DNA of 64,000 nucleotides from Escherichia coli (lineage in GTDB: Bacteria; Pseudomonadota; Gammaproteobacteria; Enterobacterales; Enterobacteriaceae): the NCBI RefSeq assembly GCF_036507355.1, contig NZ_AP027877.1; one strand, given 5' to 3'. Below are positions 9,080 to 50,917 of this stretch, piece by piece (within the stretch, counting starts at the first letter, position 1; every line of letters starts with the position of its first letter). The position numbers were made by a program, and so were the translations under genes. The notes under the pieces were generated by a model. That model saw only the letters and a program-made list of their open reading frames with translations. It had not been told where the DNA came from and made no database searches.

Positions 9080-9595
9080 ATGCCGTTGTTAGATAGCTTC
9101 ACAGTCGATCATACCCGGATGGAAGCGCCTGCAGTTCGGGTGGCGAAAACAATGAACACCCCGCATGGCGACGCAATCACCGTGTTCGATCTGCGCTTCT
9201 GCGTGCCGAACAAAGAAGTGATGCCAGAAAGAGGGATCCATACCCTGGAGCACCTGTTTGCTGGTTTTATGCGTAACCATCTTAACGGTAATGGTGTAGA
9301 GATTATCGATATCTCGCCAATGGGCTGCCGCACCGGTTTTTATATGAGTCTGATTGGTACGCCAGATGAGCAGCGTGTTGCTGATGCCTGGAAAGCGGCA
9401 ATGGAAGACGTGCTGAAAGTGCAGGATCAGAATCAGATCCCGGAACTGAACGTCTACCAGTGTGGCACTTACCAGATGCACTCGTTGCAGGAAGCGCAGG
9501 ATATTGCGCGTAGCATTCTGGAACGTGACGTGCGCATCAACAGCAACGAAGAACTGGCGCTGCCGAAAGAGAAGTTGCAGGAACTGCACATTTAG
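9080..9595 (+). CDS. luxS: S-ribosylhomocysteine lyase LuxS
   Basis: 171-aa [28 protein letters not shown]... with the HTLEH metal-binding motif. Confidence 0.96.
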
Positions 9596-9610
9596 TCAGT
9601 GGAACAAAAG

Positions 9611-9645
9611 AAGCCGGGCAGGTGACACCACCGCCCGGTTTTTTT
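9611..9645. terminator. Stem-loop terminator shared by convergent luxS and the HD-kinase gene
   Basis: aagccgggcaggtgacaccaccgcccggttttttt; hairpin followed by a T-run on the + strand. Confidence 0.65.
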
Positions 9646-10756
9646 ACCTTTCAATCACCCGATACTCCACGCTATGTGCTTCATCAGGTTGAGGAACTTC
9701 CAGCCTTGAGGCCATCCGCATCACGACCGCTTCAGGAACTGCATACTCGCGTCTGGCATTTTGCTGCTTCCATTGCGCCCATGGCACTTCAAGATAAACG
9801 ATTTTTACTCGTGCGCCGTAAGCCGTAAACAGGCTGATGAGCTGGCTACGCAGCTGGCGGGTAATGTTCGTTGCATTCCAGATGAACGGCTTTTTCTGGC
9901 GTAAAAAAACGCGCGCCTCTTCTTTTGCCTGTTGCACAATACGCCCGGTGGCGGTTTTGTCGTCCGGACTGGCATTGATTCGCCGCCGCATATCATCAAG
10001 GCTGATAACGTCCATTCCTTGGCACTGTTCATTGATATAGCGATCTTTGCCCATACCCGGTAAGCCACAGAGCAAAATAACCTCAAAAGGTTCAGCCTCC
10101 CAGGGAACAAAATCAGGAGAACTTTGCTCATGGGTCAGGTAATGCCAGCGTGCGGAATCAGACACGAACGAGCGCACTTTTCCCCAACACTGTTGCTCCT
10201 GGCAAAACAGCTCGAACAGATCGATGCGTTCCAGCATTGATTGCCGATCCGGGCTTTGGCGACCAAGCAGATCGGCACGAGCAAGCAAAGCGAGCAGACG
10301 CGTGTCGATGCGCATTGCAGCCGTGAGCAACAAACGCTCCGGTTCCGGACGTTCCAGTAACCATAGCGGTAACCCATGCAGACGCACCAGCGCAACAATT
10401 TGCTCGCGTAGCACGAACGGCGTAGGGATATCGCGCCATAAAATTTGTCGGGCCGTCAGCTCGCCCCGGCGTGCGTGGCCAGGCGACTGAATACGTCCGT
10501 TTTCCTTCACGGTAGTGCTGCGCTTTTCAACGTCATGCAATAACGCCGCCGCCCATAAAACTTCCTGCTGTTGAGCGGGGAGTTGCTGGAATACTGGCTG
10601 AGTAACAAGGGCGTTAAGCACCATTTCGGTATGCACGCCGACGTCACCTTCACCATGATGCTCCGGGTCTTGTGGCGTGTGATGCATCTCCTCAACCCAA
10701 CTGAAACGCTGGCGTAGTGTCGACCAGCGTTTATCGTCGGTAAGCTGCCAAATCAT
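9644..10756 (-). CDS. HD-domain phosphohydrolase fused to a P-loop polynucleotide-kinase-like domain (putative nucleic-acid end-healing enzyme)
   Basis: 370-aa ORF; N-terminal HD motifs (HH at ~33-34, H42, HD at ~74-75 in [10 protein letters not shown]); C-terminal Walker A GLPGMGKD (~231-238) and FIWNATN kinase-like motif; overlaps the upstream ligase gene by 4 bp. Confidence 0.7.
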
Positions 10757-11460
10757 GACTGTTCTCCATAAGCGAACTCATGGGCCATCCGCGCCCGTTG
10801 CCAGTGTCGTTTCCAGTGCACAGTGGTTTTGACATGATTTTTGCGCACATACTTGAAGACGTTATGCGAAAAGTCAGCGACGGAAAACGCATCACGATTC
10901 CGGCTGACAATGCCTTCCAGAGTACAGGGTTGCCCGGTTTGTGTATCCCAGGGATCGAATGCGCCGCGCGCATTGGTCAGCGCCAGAAAATCACGTTGCC
11001 AGTTTTTTTCATCATTCCCCGGCTGCGGGCCGGAGATTTCGGGAACGCAGGGGAAATCAAACAGGGCGGCGTAAAACTGCACCTCTTCCCAGTTCAGCCA
11101 CATATCCTGGCAGCGAACGGCAAACAGGTAAAAGTCCTGTTCCAGCGCGCGGTATTCAATGGAATGAACGGCGTAGAGATTTTCACCAAACAACTCCAGG
11201 TCGCCGAGATCGTTTTTCAGCAGTTGCCAACGCTGGCGAATTTTATAGGTCCATGCCGACTGCGTAGGCGCAGCATGGGAACGGGCAAACACACCGTAGC
11301 GGTTAAGGCAGTTATTTTCGCCGTCGAGTTTTTCTGTGTGCACCAATTGCGTGATGGCCTGTAAATCCTGCCAGTAATCGGCGTTAATGCGGTCATCGCT
11401 GGTGGTGCCAGGGGAGAAAGGATAATGCCAGGTTCTCCCGTATTTCCGTTGGGTATTCAT
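10753..11460 (-). CDS. Minimal ATP-dependent RNA/DNA-ligase-like nucleotidyltransferase (Rnl2-like NTase module)
   Basis: 235-aa ORF with ligase motifs I TEKLDGEN (candidate adenylylation lysine K44), III LFGENLY, IV LEGIV, V FKYVRK. Confidence 0.7.
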
Positions 11461-11685
11461 AATAATCCATTATTTTGTGTGTAATAAATGTACGCCCGCG
11501 AGGGTGCGAGTTATGGGGTTAAAAGAAAAATGTGAGTATCACCCGCGAAAGCGAGGGCGAAGGAAAAAGAGAATTAACAACCTGAGCGAATGCTCAGAAC
11601 CGGTTAATGGTAAATGGAAGAGTTTGGGGCGGCGAAAAGATACACCGAATGAGAGGATAAAACAACCGTTTACAGAATGAGCAAA

Positions 11686-11712
11686 TAAAAAGGGAGCCGC
11701 AGCTCCCTTTGA
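11686..11712 (-). terminator. Rho-independent terminator downstream of emrB
   Basis: Minus-strand gggagctgcggctccc hairpin followed by tttttatttg, 6 bp after the emrB stop. Confidence 0.7.
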
Positions 11713-11717
11713 CAACC

Positions 11718-13256
11718 TTAGTGCGCACCGCCTCCGCCGCCACCTGCGCCAAAGGGCGGTTTAGCAAACCACACCAGCCCCAGCAAGACGAGGAATATCC
11801 CGGCTGACATCCAGAAGATCTCATTTGCGGAAATAATCAGCCCCTGATTGGTGATCTGCTGGGCAATCCAGCCTGATGCCTGCTGTTGCGTCATCCCAAG
11901 CCCTTCCAGTTGACTGTACATCGCCTGGGCATTCGGGTTGAACGGGTTTACCGACTCGGTTAACTGCGCATGGTGCATCGACTCGCGGTTGGTCCACATG
12001 GTTGTGGTTATCGACGTGCCGATAGACCCCGCCAGCGTACGCGTAAAGTTGGAGAGGCTCGATGCCGCCGCCAGTCGTTCCGGTGGCAAACCAGACAGCG
12101 TAATGGTGGTCAGCGGCATAAAGAAGCAGGCCACCGCAAACCCCTGGATAAACTGCGGCCAGGCCGACGCGCCAAAATCCATACCTGGTTCAAAGGTATA
12201 GGCACGCCAGTAGAAGCAGACGGCATACATAATAAAGCTGAAGGTTACCAGTCGGCGCATATCCAGTTTATGCGCGAAGCGGCCGATAATCGGCGACAGT
12301 ATCACTGGAATAATCCCTACCGGCGCAGAGGCCAAACCTGCCCAGGTCGCCGTGTAACCGTAGACCTCCTGCAACAACTGCGGCAGCAGAACAATCGCGC
12401 CGAAGTAGAGCATATACGCGAGGCTGATACACAAACAGCCGATGGTGAAGTTGCGCGACTTAAACAACGACAGATCGACTATCGGGTTATCGTCGGTCAG
12501 CTCCCAGACAATCAGGAAGCAGATAGCCACCACCGCCACCACGGTAAGGATGATAATTTCCTGTGATGAAAACCAGTCCAGCTCTTTACCGCGGTCGAGC
12601 ATAATCTGCAGGCTGCCTATACCAATAACCAGCAGTGCCAGCCCCACGGCATCAATCCGCCGCCGTTCGGTGCGGGTTTCGCGTCCGCGCAGAGTTTGCA
12701 GTGTCATCAACACCACCGCCACGCCAATCGGCACGTTGATGAAGAATATCCAGCCCCAGTGGTAATTATCGCTGATATACCCGCCGAGGATTGGGCCGCA
12801 AATTGGCGCGACAATCACCGTCATCGACCACAACGCCAGCGCGATTGAGCGTTTGGCTGGCGGGTAATTATTCAGCAATAGACTTTGCGAAAGCGGGATC
12901 AACGGCCCGGCGACAATCCCCTGAATCACGCGGAAGAAGATCAGCATATTCAGGCTGCTGGAGACACCACACGCCCACGACGCAATAGCAAAGGCGATGG
13001 TTGACCAGAGGAACAGTTTCACTTCCCCGACGCGCTTTGCCAGCCAGCCGGTAAGCGGGATCGAGATGGCATTTGCCACCCCGAAAGAAGTGATTACCCA
13101 CGTTCCCTGGCTGAGCGATGAGCCCAGATTCCCGGCGATAGTGGGGATCGCCACGTTAGCAATGGTGGAGTCCAGCACCTGCATGAATGTCGCCAGTGAC
13201 AGCGCAATCGTCATAATGACCAGTTGCGCGCCTTCCAGCGGTTTTTGCTGTTGCAT
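11718..13256 (-). CDS. emrB: Multidrug efflux MFS transporter EmrB
   Basis: ORF translation MQQQKPLEGAQLVIMTIALSLATFMQVLDSTIANVAIPTIAG...; 14-TMS MFS. Confidence 0.95.
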   Translation of the reverse strand: MQQQKPLEGAQLVIMTIALSLATFMQVLDSTIANVAIPTIAGNLGSSLSQGTWVITSFGVANAISIPLTGWLAKRVGEVKLFLWSTIAFAIASWACGVSSSLNMLIFFRVIQGIVAGPLIPLSQSLLLNNYPPAKRSIALALWSMTVIVAPICGPILGGYISDNYHWGWIFFINVPIGVAVVLMTLQTLRGRETRTERRRIDAVGLALLVIGIGSLQIMLDRGKELDWFSSQEIIILTVVAVVAICFLIVWELTDDNPIVDLSLFKSRNFTIGCLCISLAYMLYFGAIVLLPQLLQEVYGYTATWAGLASAPVGIIPVILSPIIGRFAHKLDMRRLVTFSFIMYAVCFYWRAYTFEPGMDFGASAWPQFIQGFAVACFFMPLTTITLSGLPPERLAAASSLSNFTRTLAGSIGTSITTTMWTNRESMHHAQLTESVNPFNPNAQAMYSQLEGLGMTQQQASGWIAQQITNQGLIISANEIFWMSAGIFLVLLGLVWFAKPPFGAGGGGGGAH

Positions 13257-13272
13257 CACACGCACCTCTGGA

Positions 13273-14445
13273 TTAGCCAGCGTTAGCTTTTACGATATCG
13301 TCGATCAGTTTATTGACAGGTGCCAGGCTGATTTCACGCGCGGTGCTTACCGCTACCGGAGTGGAACGTACTTTATTTGCCAGTACCTGACCGTCACGGT
13401 TAGTGGTATTGACGCTCACCAGCGTGGATAAACCGATACGCAGCGGGTATTGCTCCAGCTGTTTTTGGTCCAGTTCGATACGAACAGGCAGACGCTGAAC
13501 GACTTTGATCCAGTTACCAGTCGCATTTTGCGCCGGAAGCAGTGAGAACGCGCTACCTGTGCCCATATCCAGACCAACCACTTTACCGGTGTATTTCACA
13601 TCATCGCCGTAAATATCGGTGGTGATAGTGACCGGCTGACCGATACGCATATTGGCAATCTGCGTCTCTTTAAAGTTGGCATCCACCCACATATTGGTGG
13701 CTGGAACGACCGCCATCAGCGGCGTCGTTGGGCTAATTTGCGCCCCAGGCTGTACCGCGCGGCGGGAGACATAACCGGTCATCGGACTGACAATACGAGT
13801 ACGCTCCAGCGCCAGCCAGGCGTTACGTACTTCGGTGGCAGCCTGTTGCACGGCAGGCTGATCTTCCAGTTTAGTCCCCAGAATCATCGCCTGATTGGCA
13901 TTGTATTGTTGAATCGCGACGTCCAGTTGCGCCTGGGCACTGGTAACGGCGTCGCGGGCGTGTTGCAGCTCTTCGCGACCAATCAGGTTGGCATTGCCCA
14001 GCGGCACACGGCGGTTGTAGTCGCTTTGTGCTTTCGCGAGGGCGATTTTTTGCACCTCAATATTCGCCTGCAACTGTTTGCTGTTAATCATCAGCTGGTG
14101 GGTTTGGCGAACGCTGGAAGCCAGTGCAGTTTTGGCTTTTTCAAACGCCTGGCGAGCATCTGTCGGGTCGAGAGTGACCAGCACGTCGCCTTCTTTTACA
14201 AAATCGGTGTTATCGGCCCAGACTTTCGTCACGCTGCCAGACACCTGAGACATAATTTGAATTTGATTCCCTGCCACGTATGCGTCATCGGTTTCTTCGA
14301 AGTGACGCAGTACCAAAAACCAATAAATCCCTATCGCTACGGCAATAATTATAAAGAGCAAGGTGAGAAGGAGGAGCAGACGCTTACGTTTGCCGCTCTT
14401 CTTTACCGGTTGCTGCGGGGTTTGAGTCTCCGCATTTGCGCTCAT
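13273..14445 (-). CDS. emrA: Multidrug efflux periplasmic adaptor EmrA
   Basis: ORF translation ...MSANAETQTPQQPVKKSGKRKRLLLL...; HlyD-family adaptor. Confidence 0.95.
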   Translation of the reverse strand: MSANAETQTPQQPVKKSGKRKRLLLLLTLLFIIIAVAIGIYWFLVLRHFEETDDAYVAGNQIQIMSQVSGSVTKVWADNTDFVKEGDVLVTLDPTDARQAFEKAKTALASSVRQTHQLMINSKQLQANIEVQKIALAKAQSDYNRRVPLGNANLIGREELQHARDAVTSAQAQLDVAIQQYNANQAMILGTKLEDQPAVQQAATEVRNAWLALERTRIVSPMTGYVSRRAVQPGAQISPTTPLMAVVPATNMWVDANFKETQIANMRIGQPVTITTDIYGDDVKYTGKVVGLDMGTGSAFSLLPAQNATGNWIKVVQRLPVRIELDQKQLEQYPLRIGLSTLVSVNTTNRDGQVLANKVRSTPVAVSTAREISLAPVNKLIDDIVKANAG

Positions 14446-14571
14446 ATTGTTCTCCACGATCTTCTTAACTCATCGGCTGAGCCGACCTGCTTGCCAAAAA
14501 GGCCAGCATGTTGCGATGCTGGCCAGTCATTTTTTCTTTTATAAATCTGGATTTTTGAGCGAGATGACGCG

Positions 14572-15102
14572 TTAGCTCATCGCTTCGAGAACCACACCGT
14601 CTTGTTCCATCTGGTCGAGACGGGAGAGCAATTTGCGGGTGATTTGCTCGAGCTGATCTTTTTCTGTTGTGCTGAGCGCGGACCAGAGTTGATGCAGGCA
14701 GTTATGCTGCGGTGGTAAAACCTCGCGCAAAAACTCGTGACCTTTTTCCGTTAATTGCAGATGCAGGCAGCGGCGATCGTTATCGCTTTCACGACGTTCG
14801 ATCCAACCGCGTTTTTCCAGTTCATCGGCAATACGCGTCGCGTTGGTACGGGATGATCCAAGAGCACAACTTAATTCAGAAGGCTGAATACTGTGGTTTT
14901 CCTGAGACTCCAGCGTAATCAACGCCATAAACAACGTCTCGTTAATCCCCTGAGCCTTCAGCATTTTATTGCGGTTCTCCAGCAGCTTGCTTTGCATGTG
15001 CATGCAAAGACGAGTCAGAAGGATCTCCTGATAAGGAAAATCTTCGTGGCGGCTGGCGCGAAATTTTAGCATTTGTTCAATGGGCGTAAACGAACTATCC
15101 AT
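14572..15102 (-). CDS. mprA: MarR-family repressor MprA (EmrR)
   Basis: 176-aa [49 protein letters not shown]... Confidence 0.95.
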
Positions 15103-15192
15103 TTGGGTATGACCTCATTAATTTCAGCCGATATAGTAACGACAGTTACAAATAAAGTAAATGTATTGTTTTAGAAAAATGATTCTTGTGGG

Positions 15193-15528
15193 TTATATAA
15201 TCGCCATCACTTTCCAGGCGAGCCCATAGGCCAGCGCACTAAGCAGTGTTGGGATGATAATGCTGCGTGTTTTATAGAAACTGGCACCCAGTACCGCGAA
15301 GCCGACCAGTGTGGGCACGAAACGGCGTGTATCGTGCATCACTTCTGGTGCGGTAGAGACAACCAGCAGAGCGCATATCGAGGCGATGCCAATGGTGTCG
15401 AGCAAAATACCTACCGCGCCACGTTTGGTTGGGCGGGCATTACCCACACGCAGGCGCAGCGGCAAATAGCGGAAGCAATAATTCGCCGCGCCAACCAGTA
15501 ACCCAAGCAGCAGAACCTCATAGCTCAT
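15193..15528 (-). CDS. ygaH: Branched-chain amino acid exporter small subunit (AzlD-like) YgaH
   Basis: 111-aa hydrophobic ORF overlapping ygaZ. Confidence 0.85.
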
Positions 15529-16255
15529 CGGGCGCTCCTTGCCAGAATGCCTGGATTAACGCAGTGAGGCAGCCACAGACAATGCCTGCCAGAATGGCGA
15601 CGGGAATAGAAAATAGCGTTACGCCTGCAAGGGCACCAACTAACGCTGCGGTAACGCAAAGAGACTGTTTGCGCTGGAAAGAGGCGAGCAGGAAACTCAT
15701 AAAGAGTGCCGGAAGCATAAAACCTAATGCAGCTTCAACGGCGGGATAACCTTGCAGCAAGCCGCTGCCGGAGAATGCCCCTATTACCGTACCAAATACC
15801 CACGATGACCATGAACTGAAGGCAATGCCGATCATCCAGTTCTCGCTCCAGCGGCGATTATTGCGTACCAGTTTTGCGGTGGCGGCGGCAAAAACCTCAT
15901 CCGTCAGGCCAAACGCCCATAGGGCGGTTTTCGATTTTTGCAGACGCTGAATAATACGGCTACGCAGTGACGGGCCATACAAAACATGGCGAACATCCAT
16001 TGCCATGACGGTCAGTGCAGCAACCCACAAACTACTCCCTGCTGCCAGCATCGCGGTAATGACGAACTGGCTCGCGCCTGCATAAATGATGCAGGAGAAA
16101 AAAACGCTTTCGAGAGGAGAGAATCCCAGACGGGTCGCATTCAGACCGAACGCAAAGGCCACCGGAATATAACTAATAACAATCGGTAAACTGTCTTTGC
16201 ATCCTTCCATGAAGGTCGCCGAACCAGGAGCAGGCTGTGGAGTAGGGCTTTCCAT
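15518..16255 (-). CDS. ygaZ: Branched-chain amino acid exporter large subunit (AzlC-like) YgaZ
   Basis: 245-aa membrane ORF upstream of and overlapping ygaH. Confidence 0.85.
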
Positions 16256-16378
16256 AGAGTGTACGCTTAACGATTGTTAATATTATAAATAGACTGAATG
16301 AATATCTTAACCTTATCAGACTGATGGGCTTCTTAACACCCTTATAAGTGTAAAGCCACGAAAACGGTTGCTGATTGC

Positions 16379-17563
16379 TTAATTTGCGGCTTCCTGACGA
16401 TGAAAACCTCGCCACCAGACCAGTAAGTTAACCAGGGCAATCGTCGCGCCAGCCAGACAAACGCCAGCCCAACCGCCATGTTGCCAGGCTGAGGCTGAAA
16501 TTAGCGATCCGGCGGCACCGCCAATAAAGTAGCTGGTCATGTAACCTGCGGTCAGGCGATTACGCGCATCAGGATGTATTCGATAAATTACCGTCTGGTT
16601 AGTGATATGCACGCCCTGCACGGTGAGGTCCAGCACCAGGATGCCGATAATCAGCGCCAGTACGGAAGTGTGACCAAACCAGATTGCCAGCCATGAAAGT
16701 AACAGCAGAAGCAGACCGAAAGTTGTTGTGTGGTGCGATTTGCCCTTGTCGGCAAAACCGCCCGCTGGACGAGCGCCCAACGCTCCGGCAGCTCCCGCAA
16801 GTCCAAACAGACCAATTACACCATCGCTGTAGTTAAAAGGTGGAGCGGCAAGCAAAAAGGCCATTGAGGTCCAGAGAATGCTGAAGTTGGCAAAGGTCAG
16901 GCAGCCCAGCAACGCGCGGGTGCGCAGGATCTTATCGCTGATAAACATGCTGAAAACGGAACCAAGCAACTGTGGGTAGTTGAGGTGGGTTTCTGATTTC
17001 ATTTGTGGCAGACCACGCCATAATGCCAGCGCCATCAGTGCCATTAACACCGAGGCAACCCAAAAGACTGTGCGCCAGCCGCCGAGGTTTGCCAGCAACC
17101 CGGCAACGGTTCGTGCCAGCAAGATCCCCAACAGCAGACCGCTCATAATGGTGCCGACCACTTTGCCGCGTTTGTCCGGTGAAGCCAGCGTCGCTGCCAG
17201 CGGAACCAGAATTTGTGCCACGACCGAGAATAAACCGGTTAATGCCGTACCGAGGATCATCATCGCCAGCGACTGACTGCTGGCAGTGATTAACATGCCG
17301 CCTGCCGCCAGTAAGGTCATCGAGACAATCAGGCGGCGGCGTTCAAACATATCACCGAGGGGAACAAGAAACAGCAGACCGGCGGCATAGCCCAACTGCG
17401 CGGCGGTAACAATAAAGCCTGCCGAACTGGCGGAAAGGGAAAAGTTACGCGCGATGGTGTCGAGCAATGGCTGGGCGTAATAGTTGCTGGCGACCGCCAG
17501 ACCGGTGGCGATAGACATCAGCACGATTAGCGCCGGGCTAAGCTCATGATTAGGTTTGGTCAT
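16379..17563 (-). CDS. ygaY: MFS transporter YgaY (uninterrupted reading frame)
   Basis: 394-aa continuous ORF with 12 predicted TMS pattern; position between proX and ygaZ. Confidence 0.8.
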   Translation of the reverse strand: MTKPNHELSPALIVLMSIATGLAVASNYYAQPLLDTIARNFSLSASSAGFIVTAAQLGYAAGLLFLVPLGDMFERRRLIVSMTLLAAGGMLITASSQSLAMMILGTALTGLFSVVAQILVPLAATLASPDKRGKVVGTIMSGLLLGILLARTVAGLLANLGGWRTVFWVASVLMALMALALWRGLPQMKSETHLNYPQLLGSVFSMFISDKILRTRALLGCLTFANFSILWTSMAFLLAAPPFNYSDGVIGLFGLAGAAGALGARPAGGFADKGKSHHTTTFGLLLLLLSWLAIWFGHTSVLALIIGILVLDLTVQGVHITNQTVIYRIHPDARNRLTAGYMTSYFIGGAAGSLISASAWQHGGWAGVCLAGATIALVNLLVWWRGFHRQEAAN

Positions 17564-17664
17564 TATTTTTGTTCATCAGGTGATGATTAAGCTGGAAATC
17601 AATAATAGCGGATGTTGATGAATATGGGATGAAAGATAGATTGTTGAAATGTGCGGTGTGGTTT

Positions 17665-17745
17665 GTAGGCATGATAAGACGCGCCAGCGTCGCATCAGGC
17701 ATTGTGTACAGAACGGCGGATGCGGCGTATACGCCTTATCCGCCC
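17665..17745. repeat. REP (repetitive extragenic palindromic) elements
   Basis: gtaggcatgataagacgcgccagcgtcgcatcaggc and cggatgcggcgtatacgccttatccg palindromic units. Confidence 0.8.
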
Positions 17746-17754
17746 GAATAAAAA

Positions 17755-18747
17755 TTACTTCTGCGCTGCCAACGCCTCATTCACCCAGCCATCGAACTGC
17801 TGCTGGTGGGCTTTGATCCAGCCATCAACGTGGCCCTGAATATCGCCTTCTGAGGCTTTGCCGTCATGCATAATGGCGTTCTGGGCGTTAATATCTGCCA
17901 CTGGCAACTGCATAATGGCAAACAGTTTCGCTGCTGCCGGGTTTTTCTCGGCCCAGGCTTTATTGGCAACGATATGCATGGTGCTGACCGGGAAGCCGTA
18001 ATTCGCGCCATTCGGCAGTTTAGTATCGGCATTTTTATCGCCCGGCAGTGCAGAGAACGGCACCTGCAACCAGACCACATCTTTCCCTGGCTTCAGCTCA
18101 TTACTCACCCAGTACGGCGTCCAGGTGTAGTAAAACACCGGTTTGCCCTCTTTGTAACGACTGATGGTGTCAGCCATCATCGCCGCGTAGTTCCCCTGAT
18201 TATGCGTCACGGTATTGGTCAGTTCATACGCGGCAAGCTGGTGGTTGATCGCACCTTCGCAGCCCCAGCCAGGGTTACAGCCAGTCAAATCCGCTTTACC
18301 GTCGCCGTTGGTATCGAACAGTTTGGCGATCTTCGGATCTTTCAGTTGTGCGATGTTGGTGATTTTGTACTGGTCGGCGGTTTTCTTATCGATCAGGTAA
18401 CCCTGTGCCGCGCCGTTAACAAATACCCCTTCACGATAAAATTTCTTATCGCCACCGGCAGCTTCATACATGTTGTCATGCAGTGGCGTCCAGTTCACGG
18501 CGGTGAAGGTTGCATCGCCGGAAGCAAGCGAGGTGTAGCCAACGTTGTAATCTACTTCGCTGGGTTTGTTGACGGTATAGCCTAATTTCTCCAGCGCACG
18601 GCTGACCAGCAGCGTCTGGAAGGTTTCTTCGGTGATGGTGCTCTGAACTGGATTAACAGTAATGCCTTTGCCCGGCAGATCGGCAGCAAAAGTTTGTGTA
18701 GAGATAAGCGTGGCAAACGCTGTCGCAAAAAGTACGCTATGTCGCAT
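17755..18747 (-). CDS. proX: Glycine betaine/proline ABC transporter periplasmic binding protein ProX
   Basis: ORF ...[35 protein letters not shown]...; start placed at MRHSV. Confidence 0.95.
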
Positions 18748-18803
18748 TGTTATTCCTTTTTTTGGCAGGGTGATATGCCCGGCGTCACCGGGCAAGTGCA
18801 GAG

Positions 18804-19868
18804 TTACTTAATGAATGGGCGGGTCAGCAGACCGACAGGGCCAGTGGTGTACCAGCGACGGTTGCCGCGACTGCGTGAGTCGCGCCCAACGGCCTGCGTC
18901 AGACGATCGAGGATAATGGCGAGGATCACAATCCCGACGCCGCCAACGGTGGCAAGCCCCATATCCAGACGACCGATACCGCGAAGTACCATCTGACCCA
19001 GCCCGCCGACGGCAATCATCGAGGCAATGACCACCATAGAAAGGGCCAGCATCAGCGTCTGGTTAACGCCCGCCATAATGGTCGGCATCGCCAGCGGTAA
19101 CTGAACTTTGAACAGCATCTGGCGCGGGCTGGCACCGAATGAGCGCGAGGCTTCAATCAGATCCGCCGGAACCTGGTTAATCCCCAGAATGGTCAGACGG
19201 ATAATCGGCGGCAGAGCAAAGATGATCGTCACCACCACGCCCGGCACGTTACCGATACCAAATAGCATGACGATTGGCACCAGATAAACAAACGCTGGCG
19301 TGGTCTGCATGGCATCAAGCAGTGGACGAATAATTTTCGCCGCTCGCGGACTTCTCGCCAGCCATATCCCCAACGGCAAACCGATGACGATACAGAACAG
19401 CAGGGCGGTTAACACCAGCGCCAGAGTCACCATTGCCTGCGACCAGGCACCGATTGCGCCGATGGCAATCAGCGAAACCAGCGTCGCCACGCCCATTCCG
19501 ACCCCGGAAATCTGCCAGGCGATGAGAGCGAAAACGATAATCGCCACTGGCGCTGGCATACCCAGCAGCAATTGCTGGAAACCGTTGAGGATATAATCAA
19601 CCGGAACGCGCACGCCCTGGAAGACGGGACGGAAATGGGTAACGACCCAGTCGATCCCTTCAGTGACCCAACTGTCGAGCGGGATCAGCGTTTTATGGAA
19701 CGGATCGAGAATATTAAAATGCTCGACGTTTGGCGCAGGCGTACTGGTCAGCCAGTCAGCACCACCGCCGTCAGTCGGTGCAGTCGTCGGTGTACCCCAG
19801 GCGTCTGCGGATTGCGCGGCACTGTCCGCCGCTGGCGTGGTATCCCACGGATTATTTTGATCAGCCAT
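18804..19868 (-). CDS. proW: Glycine betaine/proline ABC transporter permease ProW
   Basis: 354-aa [28 protein letters not shown]... with ABC permease core. Confidence 0.95.
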
Positions 19869-21063
19869 TATTTACCCCCTCACGATCTAAAGCGCGCAGC
19901 AGCATTCCTTTCGAAATGATGCCGACATACTGTTGGTCCTCGTCGACCACGGGCACCGCACAGGGTGCCTGTCCGACATGAGAGAGCAACTCGCTAAGAG
20001 GCGTTTGTGCATCGACTGCTAACGGCGCATCAATCAGCGCCGCATCAAGACCTTGCTGCTGCGTTAACGCGGTTTTAAGCGAATCGATGGAGACTGCGCC
20101 GACAAACTTATTACCGCGTTCGATAACGTAGCCATATTCGCGATCTTCATCCTGCAATAATTTCAGTGCCGAACGTGGGCCGAAGCCAGGGGTTTTACGA
20201 ATTAAGCCATTCGGTGTCCGGCGGGCAATATCTTTCGCACTGAATACCTGACTAATATCAACGCCACGGAAGAAGGTACGGACATAATCATTCGCCGGAT
20301 TATTGAGAATTTCATCCGGTGTGCCGACCTGTACCACTTCACCATTTTGCATAATGGCAATTCGGTCGCCAATACGCATGGCTTCATCGAGATCGTGGGA
20401 AATAAAGACAATGGTGCGCTGATGTTTCGCCTGTAATTTTACCAGCTCATCCTGCATCTCGGTGCGAATTAATGGATCGAGCGCCGAGAAGGCTTCATCC
20501 ATTAATAAAATATCCGGATTAATCGCTAACGCGCGGGCTAATCCCACACGTTGACGCATCCCGCCAGAGAGTTCATCCGGGTAGCTGTGGGCATAATTTT
20601 CCAGCCCGACCTGACGCAGTGCATCAAGGGCTTTTTCCCGGCGTTCTTCGGCATTAATTCCGGCCAATTCCATACCGAACGCAGTATTGTCCAGCACGGT
20701 CATATGCGGCATTAAGGCAAAGGACTGGAAGACCATCGCAATCTTTTTTCTGCGCACCTCACGGAGTTCGGCATCGGATATTTTGGCAATATCCACACCA
20801 TCAATCAGCACTTGCCCGCGGGTGGGTTCAATCAGGCGATTGAGAAGGCGTACCATTGTGGATTTACCCGAGCCGGATAATCCCATGATGACAAATATCT
20901 CGCCTTCTTCAATGGCCAGACTGGCGTCTTTTACGCCAAGCGATAGCCCAGTTTTTTCCAGAATTTGTTCTTTTGAAAGTCCTTGTTCGATATATTTGAA
21001 CGCTCGCTGTGGATGCTCGCCAAATATTTTATAAAGATTTTTAATTTCTAATTTAATTGCCAT
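19861..21063 (-). CDS. proV: Glycine betaine/proline ABC transporter ATPase ProV
   Basis: 400-aa ORF with Walker [10 protein letters not shown] and C-terminal CBS domains. Confidence 0.95.
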
Positions 21064-21417
21064 GCAATAGAAAGATTCCTGTTATTTGTTTATGTCGATA
21101 TATTACCCAGTGGAAATAGTCACTTTTTTCTACCCTAACATACTGAGAATCTGAGGCAACCCCCGAGGGCAAATGTGGCATGAATATTGATGTGAGCAAA
21201 TCGCCGGAATTTCCCATGATATAAGGGCTGAGAGCAAATCGAGAAAAGTTGATATTTTTTGTCAAAGATAGCAAAAAACGCCTGAATATTGTGGTTTCAG
21301 GCGAATAATGCAACAGAGTATCTGTGTAGATCACCACAAAATATTTGCGTGATAAAAAGCTATTTGGCGGGAATTATTTCCCTGTCGCGGGTAGTGATAT
21401 TTTTGAAAATAACACCC

Positions 21418-22386
<969 letters not shown>

Positions 22387-24531
22387 TTAAAGTGCACAGG
22401 AGATGCAGCCTTCAATTTCAGTGCCTTCCAGCGCCATCTGACGCAGGCGGATGTAATAGAGCGTTTTGATACCTTTGCGCCAGGCGTAAATCTGCGCTTT
22501 GTTGATATCGCGAGTGGTGGCGGTATCGGGGAAAAACAGCGTCAGCGACAGCCCCTGATCGACATGGCGAGTCGCTTCCGCGTAGGTGTCGATGATCTTT
22601 TCTGCGCCGATTTCGTAAGCGTCCTGATATAGCGCCAGATTTTCGTTAGTCATAAACGGGGCAGGGTAGTAAACGCGTCCTGTTTTGCCCTCTTTGCGTA
22701 TCTCTACTTTCGCCACAATCGGATGAATACTCGACGTAGCATGGTTGATATAAGAGATAGAACCGGTTGGCGGCACCGCCTGAAGATTCTGGTTGTAAAT
22801 GCCGTAGCGCATCACGTCGTCGCGCAGTTGCGCCCACATCTCACGGGTAGGTAACGTAATACCGCTACGGGCAAACAGTTCGCCAACTTTCGCCGTTTTC
22901 GGCTGCCAGTTCCCTTGCAGATATTGGCTAAAATATTCACCACTGGCATAGCGTGACTGTTTGAACCCGGCGAAGGTTTCACCGCGTTCGCGTGCCAGCA
23001 ACATCGAGGTACGCAGTGCGTGCCAGGTGATGGCATAGAAATAGAGATTGGTGAAATCCAGTGCTTCCGGCGAACCATAAGCGATGCCTTCTCGCGCCAG
23101 ATAGCCGTGTAAATTCATCTGCCCCAGTCCGATGGCGTGTGAGGCGGTATTTCCGGCTTCGATGGACGGCACGCTGCGGATATGACTCATATCTGATACT
23201 GCCGTTAAACCGCGCACGGCAGTCTCTACCGTGCGGGCAAAATCGGGGGAATCCATGGTGTGCGCAATATTCAACGAACCTAAATTGCAGGAAATATCAT
23301 GGCCTGTGCAGGTATAGTCGAGATTCTCGTCATACTCTGAGGCGCTGTTAACCTGCAAAATTTCTGAGCAGAGATTACTCATATTTATGCGCCCGGCGAT
23401 AGGGTTAGCACGGTTTACCGTGTCTTCATACATGATGTACGGATAGCCGGACTCAAACTGGATTTCTGCCAGTCGCTGGAAGAAATCACGGGCGTTGAGG
23501 TATTTTTTGCGAATGCGTTCATCGGCAACCAGTTCGTCATAGTGTTCGCTAATGGCGATATCGGCAAACGGTTTGCCATAAACTCGCTCTACGTCATAAG
23601 GCGAAAACAGCGCCATCTGCGCATTCTCTTTTGCCAGATGGAAAGTGATATCCGGGATCACCACGCCAAGCGACAGTGTTTTAATGCGGATTTTTTCGTC
23701 GGCATTTTCCCGTTTCGTGTCGAGAAAACGCAGAATATCGGGATGATGAGCATGTAAATAGACTGCACCAGCCCCCTGACGAGCGCCGAGTTGGTTGGCA
23801 TAGGAAAATGCGTCTTCCAGCATTTTCATCACCGGAATTACGCCAGAAGATTGATTTTCAATACGTTTAATTGGCGCGCCCGCTTCCCGCAGATTCGACA
23901 GCAAAAATGCTACGCCGCCGCCGCGTTTCGACAGTTGCAGTGCGGAATTTACCGCCCGACCAATCGACTCCATATTGTCTTCAATACGCAGCAAAAAACA
24001 GGAAACCAGTTCGCCGCGCTGCTGCTTACCGCAGTTGAGGAATGTTGGCGTGGCTGGCTGAAAGCGTCCTGACAGCATTTCATCGGTCAGTTGCAACGCC
24101 AGCGTCTCATCGCCTTGTGCCAGCGTCAGCGCCACCATCGTGACTCGATCGGCAAAATCTTCCAGATAACGTTTACCGTCGAATGTCTTCAACGTATAGC
24201 TGGTGTAAAACTTCCATGCCCCGAGGAATGTCTGGAAACGAAAACCGCTGGTGTGTGCGTGGGCAAACAGCGTAATGACAAAGTCGCGAGAGTAGCGATT
24301 AAGAACGCTTTCATCATAGTAACCTTCGTTGACCAGCCAGTTCAGGCGCTGCTGCTGGCTACTGAAGGTCACACTGTTCGGACGCACATGCGTCGCAATA
24401 AAGGCGTCAACGGCCTGGCGGTCTTTATCGAACTGAATGCGACCTGCGCTATCGTAGAGGTTAAGCATCGCATTCAGCGCGTGGTAATCCATCGTTTCCT
24501 GCGTCAGGCATTCTGCGGTTGTCGTTGCCAA
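22387..24531 (-). CDS. nrdE: Class Ib ribonucleotide reductase alpha subunit NrdE
   Basis: 714-aa ORF ending in the EGCISCAL redox tail. Confidence 0.95.
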
Positions 24532-24911
24532 AATTCGGTTACTCCTTTACGAACGTTTTCGATATCGCTTTGCGTACCCATGAGTTCAAAACGGTACAGC
24601 CACGGCACGCCGCATTTCCGGGCAATCACATCTCCGGCGCGGCCATACGCCTCACCAAAGTTGCGATTACCAGAAGCAATAACGCCGCGAAGCAACGCCC
24701 GGTTGTGCTCGTCGTTTAAAAAGCGAATTACCTGTCGTGGCACCGCGCCAGCCGTACCGCCGCCGTAAGAGGGCACGATCAGGATGTAAGGCTCGTCTAC
24801 CTGAATCCGTTCCCGCTCATTGAGCGGGATGCGCACCGCGGGCAGCCCTAAACGTTCGATAAAACGCTGCGTATTTTCGGAGCTGCTGGAAAAGTAGACG
24901 AGCTGGCTCAT
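24504..24911 (-). CDS. nrdI: Flavodoxin-like NrdI
   Basis: 135-aa [33 protein letters not shown]... Confidence 0.93.
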
Positions 24912-25361: not shown

Positions 25362-25793
25362 TTACATCCGCATGGAAACGGCCAGACGGTTAAAACAATT
25401 CATCAGCCCGATGGCAAACGTTAAGTCGCTGATTTCTGCTGCGCTGAAATGCTCAAGCAAAGGCTGATAAGCCTCGTCTTCCGCATGGGTTCTGGCAATA
25501 TCGGTCACTGATTCCGCCCATGCCAGCGCCGCTCGCTCGCGTTCATCAAAATGATGGCTTACGCGCCAGCCTGCCAGGGCGTCCAGTTTGTGTTGTGGCA
25601 CACCGGATTTGCGCAATGCTTTGCTGTGCATCTCCAGACAAAATGCGCAGCCGTTGATTTGCGAGACGCGCAAATAAATTAACTCCATCAACGTGGTATC
25701 CAGCGTGCTATTTTCCAGTGCCGTTTTGGCCTGCACCAGTGTGTTATACACTGCCGGGCTAAGTTCGTAGTAAGGCTGACGTAATGTAGTCAT
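25362..25793 (-). CDS. Carboxymuconolactone decarboxylase family (AhpD-like) protein
   Basis: 143-aa ORF with CxxCxxxH signature in SQINGCAFCLEMHS. Confidence 0.75.
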   Translation of the reverse strand: MTTLRQPYYELSPAVYNTLVQAKTALENSTLDTTLMELIYLRVSQINGCAFCLEMHSKALRKSGVPQHKLDALAGWRVSHHFDERERAALAWAESVTDIARTHAEDEAYQPLLEHFSAAEISDLTFAIGLMNCFNRLAVSMRM

Positions 25794-25880: not shown

Positions 25881-27215
25881 ATGCCACGTTATCAGGATAT
25901 CGCCCGTCAGTTAAAAACGGCTATTGAGCAAGGAGAACTGAAACCTGGCGCAAGGCTACCCTCGAGCCGTACCTGGTCGCAGGAGCTGGGTGTCTCTCGA
26001 TCCACTGTCGAAAATGCTTATGCTGAGCTGGTGGCGCAGGGATGGCTGGTCAGGCGGGGACAGGCGGGTACCTTTGTCAGTGAGCAGATACATCCGCAAC
26101 AGTCTGCTGTGGATGTCGTGGCTTTTGCTGGTGAAAGTCAGCAGCCGCTGCCTTTTCAGATGGGGCTACCTGCACTTGATCTTTTTCCGCGTGAATTGTG
26201 GGCGCGGGTGATGGGCCGCCGTCTGCGTACCCAGACGCGTTTTGATTTGGCATTAGGCGATGTCTGCGGCGAGGCGGCCTTGCGCGAGGCTATTGTTGAT
26301 TATTTACGCGTTTCACGTGGGATTGATTGTCAGCCAGAGCAGGTCTTTATCACTCACGGTTATGCGGCCTCAATGGCTTTAATTCTGCACGCTCTGGCGC
26401 AACCGGGAGACGGGATGTGGATGGAAGATCCCGGCTTTCCGCTGATTCGCCCGATTGTCACTCGCCACGGTATGGAAATTTTACCTGTGCCGGTTGATGA
26501 CAACGGACTGGATGTCACAAGCGGAATACAAAATTATCCTGATGCGCGTTTTGCCCTGATTACTCCGGCACACCAAAGCCCGCTGGGTGTGGCACTCTCT
26601 TTAGCGCGTAGGTATCAGATACTGGAATGGGCAGAGCGTAGTCAGGCATGGATTATTGAAGATGATTACGACAGTGAGTTTCGCTATCACGGTAAGCCGT
26701 TACCGGCACTAAAAAGTCTCGACGCGCCGCAGCGGGTGATTTATGCCGGAACATTCAGCAAAGCGCTATTTCCTGCATTGCGCTGTGCGTGGCTGGTGGT
26801 GCCGGTGGAGCAGATTTCGCAATTCCGGCAGCAGGCGTCACTGGAACCATGTGCTGTACCCGTACTGTGGCAGAACACACTGGCAGATTTCATCCGTGAG
26901 GGGCATTTCTGGCGGCATCTGAAGAAAATGCGCCAGCATTATGCCCAGCGACGGCAGTGGATTGAGCAGGCACTTACGCAGCAGGGATTTCAGGTTGTGC
27001 CGCAAAAAGGCGGTATCCAGATGGTGATCAAACTAGCAGGTAATGACGTGACATTCGTGCATAAAGCCAATGCTGCTGGTCTTGCCGTACAGGCACTTAG
27101 CGACTGGCGTATCCGCTCAAGCGAGGACGGAGGATTATTGCTCTCGTTTACGAATATCGTTAGCGAAAGTATGGCGCGACAGGTAGCACAGCAATTGCGC
27201 AGTGCTTTAAATTAA
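25881..27215 (+). CDS. MocR/GabR-family transcriptional regulator (GntR wHTH + PLP aminotransferase-like domain)
   Basis: 444-aa ORF; N-terminal RLPSSRTWSQELGVSRSTVENAYAELVAQGWL; C-terminal fold-type I region with GTFSKALFP (candidate PLP lysine). Confidence 0.8.
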   Translation: MPRYQDIARQLKTAIEQGELKPGARLPSSRTWSQELGVSRSTVENAYAELVAQGWLVRRGQAGTFVSEQIHPQQSAVDVVAFAGESQQPLPFQMGLPALDLFPRELWARVMGRRLRTQTRFDLALGDVCGEAALREAIVDYLRVSRGIDCQPEQVFITHGYAASMALILHALAQPGDGMWMEDPGFPLIRPIVTRHGMEILPVPVDDNGLDVTSGIQNYPDARFALITPAHQSPLGVALSLARRYQILEWAERSQAWIIEDDYDSEFRYHGKPLPALKSLDAPQRVIYAGTFSKALFPALRCAWLVVPVEQISQFRQQASLEPCAVPVLWQNTLADFIREGHFWRHLKKMRQHYAQRRQWIEQALTQQGFQVVPQKGGIQMVIKLAGNDVTFVHKANAAGLAVQALSDWRIRSSEDGGLLLSFTNIVSESMARQVAQQLRSALN

Positions 27216-45830: not shown

Positions 45831-46149
45831 AGCAGAAGATATTCATCAGAAACGATTATGTAAATCATTTTATTTTGCCAACGGCCTCATTGTCGAAAGA
45901 AAAGAATACGCCCGTGTTTCCTGAATAGATTGACTTTTTTATCTAACCACACTTCAGCGCACTGCGTTTAAAAAATGCCTCATTCTTATGCGGAATATCA
46001 TCATTTCATCATGATGTCTTTGATGAGCGGTGAACACAATACACTTGCGCTGTCTCTTCAGGATGAATCCCCTGGTCTGGTGCCTGTGGGCTGATGTTGC
46101 AGCAAAGCTAAGGTCGCTTAAACGCTACTCAGTATTCACTTTTCAGAGG

Positions 46150-47653
46150 ATGAAATTTATGAACAGGACCAGTCCCTATTATTTTCGCCGCTCAGTACTT
46201 TCCTTATTGATATCTACCTTAATATATGCCCAGCCCGGGATGGCGGCCTTCACTACTAATGTTATTGGTGTGGTAAACGATGAGACTGTAGATGGCAACC
46301 AACGAGTAGATGAACGAGGTACAACAAATAACACTCATATTATCAACCATGGCCGGCAGGAGGTCTATGGTGGGATATCTAATAGTAGTATTATTGAAAC
46401 TGGTGGCGAGCAACTAGTATCAATCCATGCCGATATTAACGGGCAAGCTAATAATACAACCATTAATGGAGGCAGACAGTCAATTGAGTACGGAGGAATT
46501 TCTACTAGCACGATAATCGAAAGTGGCAATCAATATGTTCATAAAGGTGGTACCAGCAATGACACGACAATTAAGGGCGGTACTTCACGCATAGAGGGGG
46601 GGACTGCAAATGGAACAATCATTGATGGTGGTAGCCAACAAGTAACAACTCAGGGGCATGTTGACGGTACAACGATAAATAAGTCTGGCTCTCAGGACGT
46701 AGTACAAGGAAGTCTGGCAACGAACACAACCATAAATGGTGGTCGACAGTATGTTGAACAGAGCACAGTAGAAACAACAACCATTAAAAATGGCGGTGAG
46801 CAAAGAGTATATGAGAGCCGTGCGCTGGACACGACGATTGAAGGCGGAACTCAGTCTCTGAATAGTAAGTCAACGGCAAAAAATACACAGATCTATTCTG
46901 GTGGCACGCAAATTGTTGATAACACCAGCTCCTCGGATGTTATTGAAGTTTATTCCGGTGGCGTGCTTGATGTTAGTGGTGGTACGGCAACAAATGTTAC
47001 CCAGCACGATGGTGCAATTTTAAAAACTAACACTAACGGTACGACGGTGAGCGGTACGAATAGTGAAGGTGCATTCTCCATCCACAATCACGTGGCAGAC
47101 AATGTGTTGCTGGAAAACGGTGGTCATTTAGACATAAACGCATATGGTTCGGCAAACAAGACGATTATTAAAGATAAAGGAACAATGTCAGTTTTAACCA
47201 ATGCTAAAGCTGATGCGACCCGAATAGATAATGGCGGGGTTATGGATGTTGCAGGAAACGCGACAAATACCATAATTAATGGTGGCACACAGAATATTAA
47301 TAATTATGGCATAGCCACAGGCACCAATATCAACAGCGGAACGCAAAATATCAAAAGCGGCGGGAAAGCTGACACAACAATTATATCCTCCGGGAGCCGG
47401 CAGGTTGTTGAGAAAGATGGTACGGCAATTGGCAGCAATATTAGCGCCGGAGGCTCGCTGATTGTCTATACCGGCGGTATTGCACATGGGGTTAACCAGG
47501 AGACGGGCAGTGCTTTAGTTGCCAACACGGGTGCAGGGACTGATATCGAAGGATACAACAAGCTCTCTCACTTCACTATTACCGGAGGGGAGGCTAATTA
47601 TGTTGTGCTGGAAAACGCTGGCTCATTAACAGTCGTCACTGGTTCCCGGGCAG
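46150..47653 (+). pseudogene. Autotransporter-adhesin passenger domain (ypjA-like), truncated by IS1
   Basis: Signal peptide MKFMNRTSPYYFRRSVLSLLISTLIYAQPGMA then repeated ...TTINGGRQ...GGT.. motifs; reading frame runs directly into the IS1 left end at 47654; no beta-barrel domain. Confidence 0.75.
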
Positions 47654-48421
47654 GGTGATGCTGCCAACTTACTGATTTAGTGTATGATGGTGTTTTTGAG
47701 GTGCTCCAGTGGCTTCTGTTTCTATCAGCTGTCCCTCCTGTTCAGCTACTGACGGGGTGGTGCGTAACGGCAAAAGCACCGCCGGACATCAGCGCTATCT
47801 CTGCTCTCACTGCCGTAAAACATGGCAACTGCAGTTCACTTACACCGCTTCTCAACCCGGTACGCACCAGAAAATCATTGATATGGCCATGAATGGCGTT
47901 GGATGCCGGGCAACAGCCCGCATTATGGGCGTTGGCCTCAACACGATTTTACGTCACTTAAAAAACTCAGGCCGCAGTCGGTAACCTCGCGCATACAGCC
48001 GGGCAGTGACGTCATCGTCTGCGCGGAAATGGACGAACAGTGGGGCTATGTCGGGGCTAAATCGCGCCAGCGCTGGCTGTTTTACGCGTATGACAGGCTC
48101 CGGAAGACGGTTGTTGCGCACGTATTCGGTGAACGCACGATGGCGACGCTGGGGCGTCTTATGAGCCTGCTGTCACCCTTTGACGTGGTGATATGGATGA
48201 CGGATGGCTGGCCGCTGTATGAATCCCGCCTGAAGGGAAAGCTGCACGTAATCAGCAAGCGATATACGCAGCGAATTGAGCGGCATAACCTGAATCTGAG
48301 GCAGCACCTGGCACGGCTGGGACGGAAGTCGCTGTCGTTCTCAAAATCGGTGGAGCTGCATGACAAAGTCATCGGGCATTATCTGAACATAAAACACTAT
48401 CAATAAGTTGGAGTCATTACC
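47654..48421 (+). mobile_element. IS1 insertion sequence, copy 2 (768 bp, no target-site duplication)
   Basis: Same sequence and orientation as copy 1 (identical InsA/InsB translations); flanks cccgggcag / gaggttttg do not match. Confidence 0.95.
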
Positions 48422-49239
48422 GAGGTTTTGTTATATATGTTGTTTCCAATATATTTTTCATTTGTCAAAATTTGATGTATTTTTGCACGAGTCCATAATG
48501 TTCCATTTTCTGCAGGTATGTTCTGTTCATTTAATCTCTCAGCAATAATGAATTCTGGGACGTTATTATCTATAAAGAGATCATATATTCTATTTACAAT
48601 TTTTATTTCATTTTTTGGTCCCGGAATTAATATTACCCTATCTGTTTGAATACTCTTTCTTTTGCGGAAACTCAATATTTCTTTAGCTATGCCATTTTCG
48701 TCTACTAAAAGACGTCTCAGCCCATAACCAGCCATACCGCCTTGATGATAACCAAGCTTTATTAAATTTACTTGCCCTATAAATACCTTTTCAGATAGAT
48801 TCCTGCTGTGATATGCAGCACTAGATCTTTTTATATTCAGTATAACAGAGGACTCTAAAGGGAAATCTTTAGTGGGTATAGGTTCGGAACAATATATAAG
48901 ATCTACACCATTTCTCTCAAATAGAAAGGAATAATATGCCGCTTCATCACTATTTTGAAAACGACCAAAACGGCTCACATCATAAAATAATACAGCCTGT
49001 ATATCTATTTTCTTTTGTTCTACATCGCTAAGTAACTGCTGCAAAGAATGCCTGCCTACGATACTGACTCCGCTCTTACCTGCATCATCGTAGGTATAAG
49101 CGATTTCCATATTGTTCTTTTCAGCATAATCTTTGATATATTCGGACTGATTATGTAAAGAATATTGCTGATGGTCGGTAGACATCCTCAAGTACTGCGC
49201 GACCCTAACTCTATGATTTTTTTCATTTTCGCTAGCCAT
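48422..49239 (-). pseudogene. Large serine recombinase, C-terminally truncated by IS1
   Basis: N-terminal resolvase catalytic motif VAQYLRMSTDHQ and following recombinase-domain sequence; ORF ends inside IS1 after ~272 codons; AT-rich. Confidence 0.7.
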
Positions 49240-49521: not shown

Positions 49522-50751
49522 TTATGCGGCAATAACTTTGCATTTTTGAGACGAAACATAGTCACTCCACCATTGCATGAGAACCACCCGTTCAGTGAGA
49601 TACTCTGCACGATTGTAGGCTGCAATTATTTCATCTTTCTTCGAGTGGGCAAGGGCGGCTTCTAAGACATCAGTCCTAAACTTGCCAGACTCCTCAGCAG
49701 CCGTTCTAGCAATGGATCGCATACCGTGAGCTACAAGCTCACCTCCGAAACCCATACGGATTATGGCCGCATTAGCTGTTTGTTCATGCATGTGATTGAG
49801 TGGAGCTTTGATACTGGGGAACACCCACTCTCTATGCCCGCTGATGACTTTCATTAAATCCAAAACTCGCAAAGCTTCTTTGCTCAGTGGAACTTTGTGA
49901 GGCTTCTTCATTTTCATAAACTCCGCCGGGATGTTCCACATGCCAGTTTCAATATCAATATCTGACCATCTTGTGCGAACAGCTTCACCTGGGCGAACCC
50001 ATGTGAGAAGTTGCCACTCAATCAGTAGCCTTGTTTCCAAACGGATAGAAGCATTGTTTAGAGCAACCAAGAAGCGAGGGAGTTCGGAAGGGGGTAATGC
50101 TGGCATATTCTGTTTTTTTGGCTTGCTGAACCGTTGCCCCAGGTTGTCTGCCGGGTTGAATTCTATGAGTTCTTCTGTTGCTGCATAGCGGAAAATTTCA
50201 TTCAGGCGGGATATGATGCGGCGAAGTGTTTCAAGGACACCTCGTTTTTCTATGGGTTCTAAATGCTGTTTAAGCATTTTAGGGCGAATCTCCTTAATTG
50301 GGGTATCACCCAATGTGGAAAAGATATTTCTCTCTAGGCTTCGCCAGATGTCGTTAGCATGATCTTGGGAGATGCCTGACGTTTTGACTTTCTCATCAAG
50401 CCACTTCTTGGCTACTGCTTGAAATGTATGTTCCGTGGCATCTTTCAGTGCATTGGCTTTTTGGTTGTTATGAACTTGGGGGTCTATACCATTTGTAAGC
50501 AACGACAAGTATTCATCACGTAAAGCTCGTGCCTTCGCAAGTGTAAGGTGAGGATAGGTTCCTAAGCTCACCTTAGTTCGCTTTTTGGTCACAGGCACTG
50601 CATATCTGAAATACCAATTTTTCTTCCCTCCCTTCGCCAGGGGAGCGATTCGCAACAGCAAACCATCGCCGTCAAAAAGGTTAACCTCTTTTTCGGCAGG
50701 TTTGGTGCTTTTGATTTCAGTGTCAGTGAGCTTCTTAGCGATTTTGGCCAT
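49522..50751 (-). CDS. P4-type tyrosine integrase adjacent to tmRNA
   Basis: ORF ...MAKIAKKLTDTEIKSTKPAEKEVNLFDGDGLLLRIAP...WYFRY...; C-terminal catalytic domain (HGMRSIARTAAEE); 166 bp from the ssrA 3' end. Confidence 0.88.
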   Translation of the reverse strand: MAKIAKKLTDTEIKSTKPAEKEVNLFDGDGLLLRIAPLAKGGKKNWYFRYAVPVTKKRTKVSLGTYPHLTLAKARALRDEYLSLLTNGIDPQVHNNQKANALKDATEHTFQAVAKKWLDEKVKTSGISQDHANDIWRSLERNIFSTLGDTPIKEIRPKMLKQHLEPIEKRGVLETLRRIISRLNEIFRYAATEELIEFNPADNLGQRFSKPKKQNMPALPPSELPRFLVALNNASIRLETRLLIEWQLLTWVRPGEAVRTRWSDIDIETGMWNIPAEFMKMKKPHKVPLSKEALRVLDLMKVISGHREWVFPSIKAPLNHMHEQTANAAIIRMGFGGELVAHGMRSIARTAAEESGKFRTDVLEAALAHSKKDEIIAAYNRAEYLTERVVLMQWWSDYVSSQKCKVIAA

Positions 50752-50917
50752 GTTTGGGACCCTCGATTTTAGGACCCATCTTCGTGGGTCCCATTCAGGG
50801 TGCCATAACTCGTAGTTCTCAGCAATTCTCACTAGACTACAATAGACGTAAAAAAGCCCGCAGAGCTTGTGCTGTGCGGGCTTAGTAGACTTTACTGAAC
50901 TTCAGTACATCAATATT

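Follow-up and report, generated by a model that had tools for sequence, protein, structure and literature searches.

In Escherichia coli K-12 MG1655 (NC_000913.3), ygaY (b2681) is annotated as a pseudogene of 1178 bp, and the literature on this strain refers to 'the crypticity of ygaY' and to in-frame stops. In K-12, ygaY has been used as a pseudogene deletion control and as an integration site for metabolic engineering, and has been described as an anchor of an H-NS bridge; no transport, expression or phenotype data for an intact ygaY allele were found in the searchable literature. An intact protein is on record as RefSeq entry WP_000165699.1, present in BL21, CRE1540 and many other strains. 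The only named E. coli paralogue compared with YgaY was YnfM (b1596), a 12-TM transporter of the major facilitator superfamily (MFS), which we take to belong to TCDB family 2.A.1.36. Their motif A regions are similar (PLSDAIGRK in YnfM, PLGDMFERRR in YgaY), and the 26% identity over ~400 aa (E = 2e-20) is too distant for a substrate or a subfamily to be transferred from one to the other. In BL21, YnfM is a proton-dependent, CCCP-sensitive glutarate exporter, and deletion of ynfM alone abolished glutarate export in that strain (PMC12622518). Since the loss of ynfM sufficed in a strain with an intact ygaY, YgaY would not serve as a second, redundant route of glutarate export in these conditions. 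Among proteins of solved structure, SotB (6kkk/6kkl), MdfA (4zp0/6euq) and NorA (8ttf) have the same 12-helix fold as YgaY (TM-score 0.79-0.90, rmsd 2.3-4.4 Å). These DHA1 exporters (TCDB 2.A.1.2) are 15-18% identical to YgaY, which, unlike them, lacks motif C, and YgaY scores far below the cutoffs of the DHA1 and Bcr/CflA NCBIfam models.

The sequence analysed here is a stretch of 64,000 nucleotides of E. coli DNA (contig NZ_AP027877.1), referred to below as the window. In the ORF listing, ygaY is one uninterrupted minus-strand frame of 394 aa that opens with ATG and has a single stop, at its end (Table 1). Its product scored 142.2 bits with the Pfam profile MFS_1 (PF07690; E = 2.6e-41), above the cutoff of 33.4, in agreement with the sequence-only reading of this region, which had described, with no strand given, a continuous MFS transporter gene of 394 codons. 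The protein is residue for residue the same as WP_000165699.1 (annotated in BL21(RP) and CRE1540; 100% identity over 394 aa), the nucleotide differences being synonymous only, and proteins 100% identical to it over their full length were found on at least 1000 contigs. The same reading had placed the gene beside the proU operon and ygaZH, which proved correct: proX and proW lie upstream and ygaZ, ygaH and mprA downstream, and the order proVWX-ygaY-ygaZH-mprA is that of K-12. The window is collinear with K-12 from 11717 to 25268, and its ygaY is the positional orthologue of b2681, both genes lying between proX and ygaZ-ygaH-mprA. For proX, the true start is likely the ATG of MRHSVLF...

Table 1. 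Features of the ygaY locus and of the segments of the window that differ from K-12 (window coordinates).
Feature	Position	Strand	Description	Basis or context
ygaY	16379..17563	-	CDS, 394 codons + stop, intact; MFS transporter	ORF, Pfam, K-12 alignment, identity to WP_000165699.1
7-bp perfect tandem repeat	17296..17309	-	GGCGGCA GGCGGCA; gene nt 255-268, codons 85-90, in TM3	alignments
proX	17755..18747	-	last gene of proVWX, upstream of ygaY	ORF; position and 993-bp length as in K-12 and PapRG-06-5
proW	18804-19868	-	upstream of ygaY	ORF
ygaZ	15518..16255	-	AzlC-type L-valine exporter subunit; 123 bp past the ygaY stop	ORF, K-12 annotation, Citrobacter gene order
ygaH	15193..15528	-	AzlD-type L-valine exporter subunit	ORF, K-12 annotation, Citrobacter gene order
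mprA/emrR	14572..15102	-	MarR-family repressor of emrAB	ORF, K-12 and PapRG-06-5 annotation
RNA_ligase-family protein	10753..11460	-	235 aa	luxS-emrB segment
Protein with C-terminal AAA_33 kinase-like domain	9644..10756	-	370 aa	luxS-emrB segment
CMD/AhpD-like protein	25362..25793	-	143 aa	divergent from the GntR + aminotransferase gene
GntR + aminotransferase (MocR/PdxR-like) regulator	25881..27215	+	444 aa	PdxR in some RefSeq genomes
AIDA-type autotransporter ORF	46030..47658	+	ypjA-like	ends ~250 bp before IS1
IS1 transposase	47903..48406	+		CP4-57 site
Serine recombinase ORF	48400..49239	-		abuts IS1 transposase
P4-type integrase	49522..50832	-		CP4-57 site

The disruption of ygaY in K-12, mentioned in the earlier reading, was located by aligning the two genes from end to end, as that reading had proposed. 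Over the 1185 columns of the alignment, the only gap is one of 7 bp (gene nt 255-261), all other differences being substitutions. The gap falls within the tandem GGCGGCAGGCGGCA (plus-strand letters, read directly from the raw sequence: tgccgcctgccgcc). At this point the window gene reads CTT ACT, two copies of GGCGGCA and TGT, while K-12 retains one GGCGGCA copy. The loss of 7 bp shifts the frame, so that in K-12 it stops at codon 89; an 88-aa N-terminal fragment remains, and a further 305 aa form an ORF of their own downstream. The K-12 copy is not intact, and that of the K-12 derivative JME66 is labelled 'frameshifted' by PGAP. The lesion lies in TM3 (helix 75-94 of the structural model; hydropathy segment 78-96). 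The removal of a single unit from a tandem repeat is a classic signature of replication slippage. The deletion itself is directly visible in the alignment; because the repeat is a perfect 7-bp tandem, replication slippage most likely removed one of the two copies. Apart from the frameshift, the window and K-12 genes specify the same residues, differing by 40 synonymous changes and one CTT/TTG leucine codon; the single 'non-synonymous' difference that path averaging assigns to this codon in the comparisons with BL21, CRE1540 and K-12 is an artefact, the proteins being identical. The window gene has 36 synonymous differences from that of BL21 and 31 from that of CRE1540. Between K-12 and BL21 there are 11 synonymous and 0 non-synonymous differences and, given this absence of amino acid changes, the K-12 lesion is recent, with no drift since inactivation.

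The distribution of the two forms was followed in 5426 complete E. coli genomes. A 34-mer spanning the K-12 junction was present in 353 of them. All 60 matches listed were in chromosomes of 4.50-4.77 Mb that look like K-12 laboratory derivatives, and most bear names of K-12 laboratory strains such as MG1655, BW25113, BW2952, C600, JM109, MC4100, EPI300, TG1 or RV308. An exact 34-mer across both repeat copies was found in 1657 genomes only, a number that undercounts intact alleles because synonymous SNPs (GGCAGCGGGCGGTA and similar) break the 28-base seed. A 106-nt query around the lesion site was therefore used instead; it matched 5417 of the 5426 genomes, the K-12 type forming the 90.6% gapped class. 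Of 39 full-length matches taken at even intervals from the ranking, 37 equalled the window gene in length and 2 were of the K-12 type. Seven non-K-12 genomes of different lineages (O55:H7 USDA5905, CRE1540, IAI39, BL21(RP), SD134209, AF14 and 2013C-3181) all carried an intact 1185-bp CDS named 'MFS transporter'; the same CDS is present in PapRG-06-5, the nearest relative, which was counted apart. This strain, from a Gambian baboon, gave the best match to positions 8000-28000 of the window among the 5426 genomes (99.0% over 20 kb). The intact gene is the species norm and K-12 the exception; the continuous frame seen here is therefore a matter of a known K-12 peculiarity and not something special to the window. 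A different lesion was present in the clinical E. coli strain S115 (NZ_CP158441.1), whose ygaY has an independent 19-bp deletion at gene nt 252-270. It overlaps the K-12 site, takes both GGCGGCA copies and has TT microhomology at its flanks, and PGAP labels the gene 'frameshifted'. Phase variation at the 7-bp repeat was also considered. It was ruled out, since the S115 lesion is a deletion of another kind and since, among the ~2000 genomes with either the perfect repeat or the K-12 form derived from it, a copy has been lost only in the clonal K-12 set.

Pairwise dN/dS values among nine intact ygaY alleles (Nei-Gojobori) ranged from 0.01 to 0.07, with a mean of 0.04, which indicates that the YgaY protein is under strong purifying selection across these diverse alleles. 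Identity with the Citrobacter orthologue was 93%, and the whole arrangement nrdEF-proVWX-ygaY-ygaZH-mprA-emrAB is the same there; the orthologue of E. albertii was ~96% identical and those of E. fergusonii and E. marmotae ~98%. In 1.84 billion cluster representatives, scanned exhaustively with HMMER, 1144 relatives were found at E <= 1e-30. In the 103 relatives at 35-56% identity, the conserved positions, polar or charged, include P68 (100%), D71 (98%), R151 (99%), D272 (92%) and R336 (97%), together with D312 (88%) and Q316, N322 and Q323 (87% each) in TM10. The window allele retains all the family-conserved residues. Given the dN/dS of ~0.04, the retention of every one of these residues and the conservation of the gene with its synteny in Citrobacter, the window ygaY, a real and intact allele, looks functional. 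Taken together with the alignments, the data make it very probable that the window has the ancestral form of ygaY, kept by selection and encoding a 12-helix MFS secondary transporter, and that the K-12 pseudogene arose once, likely by slippage. That event would have taken place in the K-12 lineage, and the window is free of its lesion.

The hydropathy profile of YgaY shows 11 strong TM segments and a weaker one at ~336-360, with even-numbered, cytoplasmic loops rich in K and R. An AlphaFold2 model, built on the 103 relatives mentioned above, contains 12 helices (pLDDT 95.2, pTM 0.93), and the predicted topology is the canonical N-in/C-in arrangement of MFS proteins. The hydrophobic pattern expected in the sequence-only reading, which had suggested a topology prediction as a check, is thus present. 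Membership of the MFS is supported by the MFS_1 score above the gathering threshold, by twelve TM helices in two six-helix bundles and by motif A. The latter (G-x-x-x-D-[RK]-x-G-R-[RK], in the TM2-TM3 loop) occurs as the variant P68-L-G-D71-M-F-E-R-R-R, and a second copy, G-F-A-D272-K-G, is found in the TM8-TM9 loop. The antiporter motif C (G-x-x-x-G-P-x-x-G-G) is absent from TM5, which reads G137-TIMS-G142-LLL-G146-ILLA-R151-TVA-G155, and no GP occurs in YgaY or in the family consensus. When the model was compared with the PDB using Foldseek, the top matches were the exporters SotB (TM 0.84-0.90), MdfA and NorA, at 15-18% identity, with TM-scores of 0.81-0.90 for SotB and MdfA taken together; this resemblance (E = 4e-12 to 1e-9) is weakly discriminating, given the shared MFS fold. 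By sequence, matches to the PDB were weak. Since all 19 NCBIfam matches fell far short of their cutoffs (TIGR00710, Bcr/CflA, for example, gave 50.4 bits against 200.9), no specific functional family name can be given to YgaY.

Alternating access by a rocker-switch movement, coupled to protons, is established behaviour for MFS transporters, and YgaY would most likely work in this way, driven by the proton gradient. The central cavity would be lined by conserved membrane-embedded residues, R151 in TM5 and D312, Q316, N322 and Q323 in TM10; of these, R151 and D312 are candidates for a role in coupling or binding. As to the direction of transport, export of a small cytoplasmic metabolite is, on weak grounds, considered more likely than uptake. 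In its favour, the proteins related over their whole sequence (YnfM, SotB, Cmx and Bcr) and the structural neighbours are exporters, as are the products of the adjacent genes ygaZH and emrAB. The absence of motif C weakens this view, and it is limited by the fact that the MFS fold alone does not distinguish exporters from importers and by the N-terminal half of the protein, which matches symporters best. The opposite reading, namely that YgaY is a symporter taking up an osmoprotectant or an aromatic or organic acid, is possible though doubtful. It draws on the adjoining proVWX genes of the proU uptake system, on the top NCBIfam match, the aromatic acid/H+ symport model TIGR00895 (N-terminal half, 78 bits against a cutoff of 418), and on the best PDB sequence match, the glucose/H+ symporter GlcP (residues 34-181). 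However, the TIGR00895 and GlcP matches cover a generic N-domain only, whereas the alignments that extend over the full length are with the exporters SotB, Cmx/CmrA, Bcr/CflA and YnfM, and exporters also head the structural matches. In addition, ygaY transcript levels in K-12 under osmotic conditions have been reported to be largely insulated from proU.

The lesions of K-12 and S115 overlap, and one reading of them is that the 7-bp repeat is a recurrent hot-spot at which the gene is switched off, YgaY being also an exporter of metabolites or osmolytes that acts alongside proU and ygaZH. This combination is improbable; were it true, K-12 would be a natural null whose osmoadaptation or amino-acid-export phenotypes differ from those of wild E. 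coli. The same two independent lesions (7 bp in K-12, 19 bp at nt 252-270 in S115) might instead mean that the gene, although its frame is open, is silent or dispensable and heading to decay, K-12 and other strains losing it at no cost and the open frame having no functional significance. K-12 grows normally without ygaY, the locus serving as a neutral control or integration site, and H-NS-mediated bridging at ygaY has been reported in that strain. Between proX and ygaY, a simple scan for the sigma-70 consensus gave no promoter-like match. Its totals, 1 promoter-like and 2 terminator-like sites, are not above the shuffled means of 1.6 and 2.3, for which reason the scan is uninformative on ygaY transcription. 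A gene drifting to decay is nevertheless very unlikely in view of the strong purifying selection indicated by the dN/dS of ~0.04 among diverse intact alleles, the 93-98% identity and shared synteny across Escherichia species and Citrobacter, the retention of every family-conserved residue, and the confinement of lesions at this site to the 353 K-12-type genomes and a handful of others among 5426. Finally, the chance that the continuous frame hides a frameshift, through faulty sequencing or assembly or, as the earlier reading had cautioned, through a slip in reading, is negligible: no evidence supporting it was found, the called ORF has 394 aa and no stop before its end, and no frameshift is hidden in a gene whose protein equals WP_000165699.1 and has 100% identical counterparts on at least 1000 contigs.

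The pseudogene status of ygaY in K-12 (reference annotation and literature) and the intact RefSeq protein were both already known, and in this respect nothing is new. What is added to the ancestral-allele reading is the exact lesion and its confinement to the K-12 set, together with an estimate of how strong purifying selection is and a structural model of high confidence. These carry little weight beyond bookkeeping. They do show once more that K-12 is naturally null for ygaY, so that YgaY has to be studied in another strain, BL21 for example, or in K-12 with the 7 bp restored. The exact lesion and the model would ease the design of such experiments; the substrate of YgaY is a minor question, and the window leaves its testability unchanged.

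Several other differences were seen along the window. In the proX-ygaY intergenic region (17650-17750), just downstream of proX, lie two palindromic units, gcctgatgcgacgctggcgcgtcttatcatgcctac on the minus strand and ggcggatgcggcgtatacgccttatccgccc on the plus strand, which we presume from their consensus to be REP/BIME-like. On account of these REP-like units, the first 36 bases of a 1401-nt query brought matches at a median of 8 sites in each genome, and in one case on a plasmid. Between luxS and emrB, a 2.1-kb segment absent from K-12 (9600-11717) carries two overlapping minus-strand ORFs (Table 1) that look like an RNA-repair gene pair. Another stretch of 2.1 kb that K-12 lacks separates ygaM from nrdH (25268-27363) and holds the CMD/AhpD-like and MocR/PdxR-like genes. 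By smpB, the 22-kb CP4-57 prophage of K-12 is absent, and other genes occupy its site (46030-50912), which looks like a small degraded island with an IS1 disruption. At 40310-41076, ~770 bp absent from K-12 fall in a region that matches the pseudogene ygaQ (K-12 2787799-2787809), and this second K-12 pseudogene may be more complete in the window strain. A further ~190 bp absent from K-12 (1165-1356) lie between the recA-side and recX-side alignment blocks.
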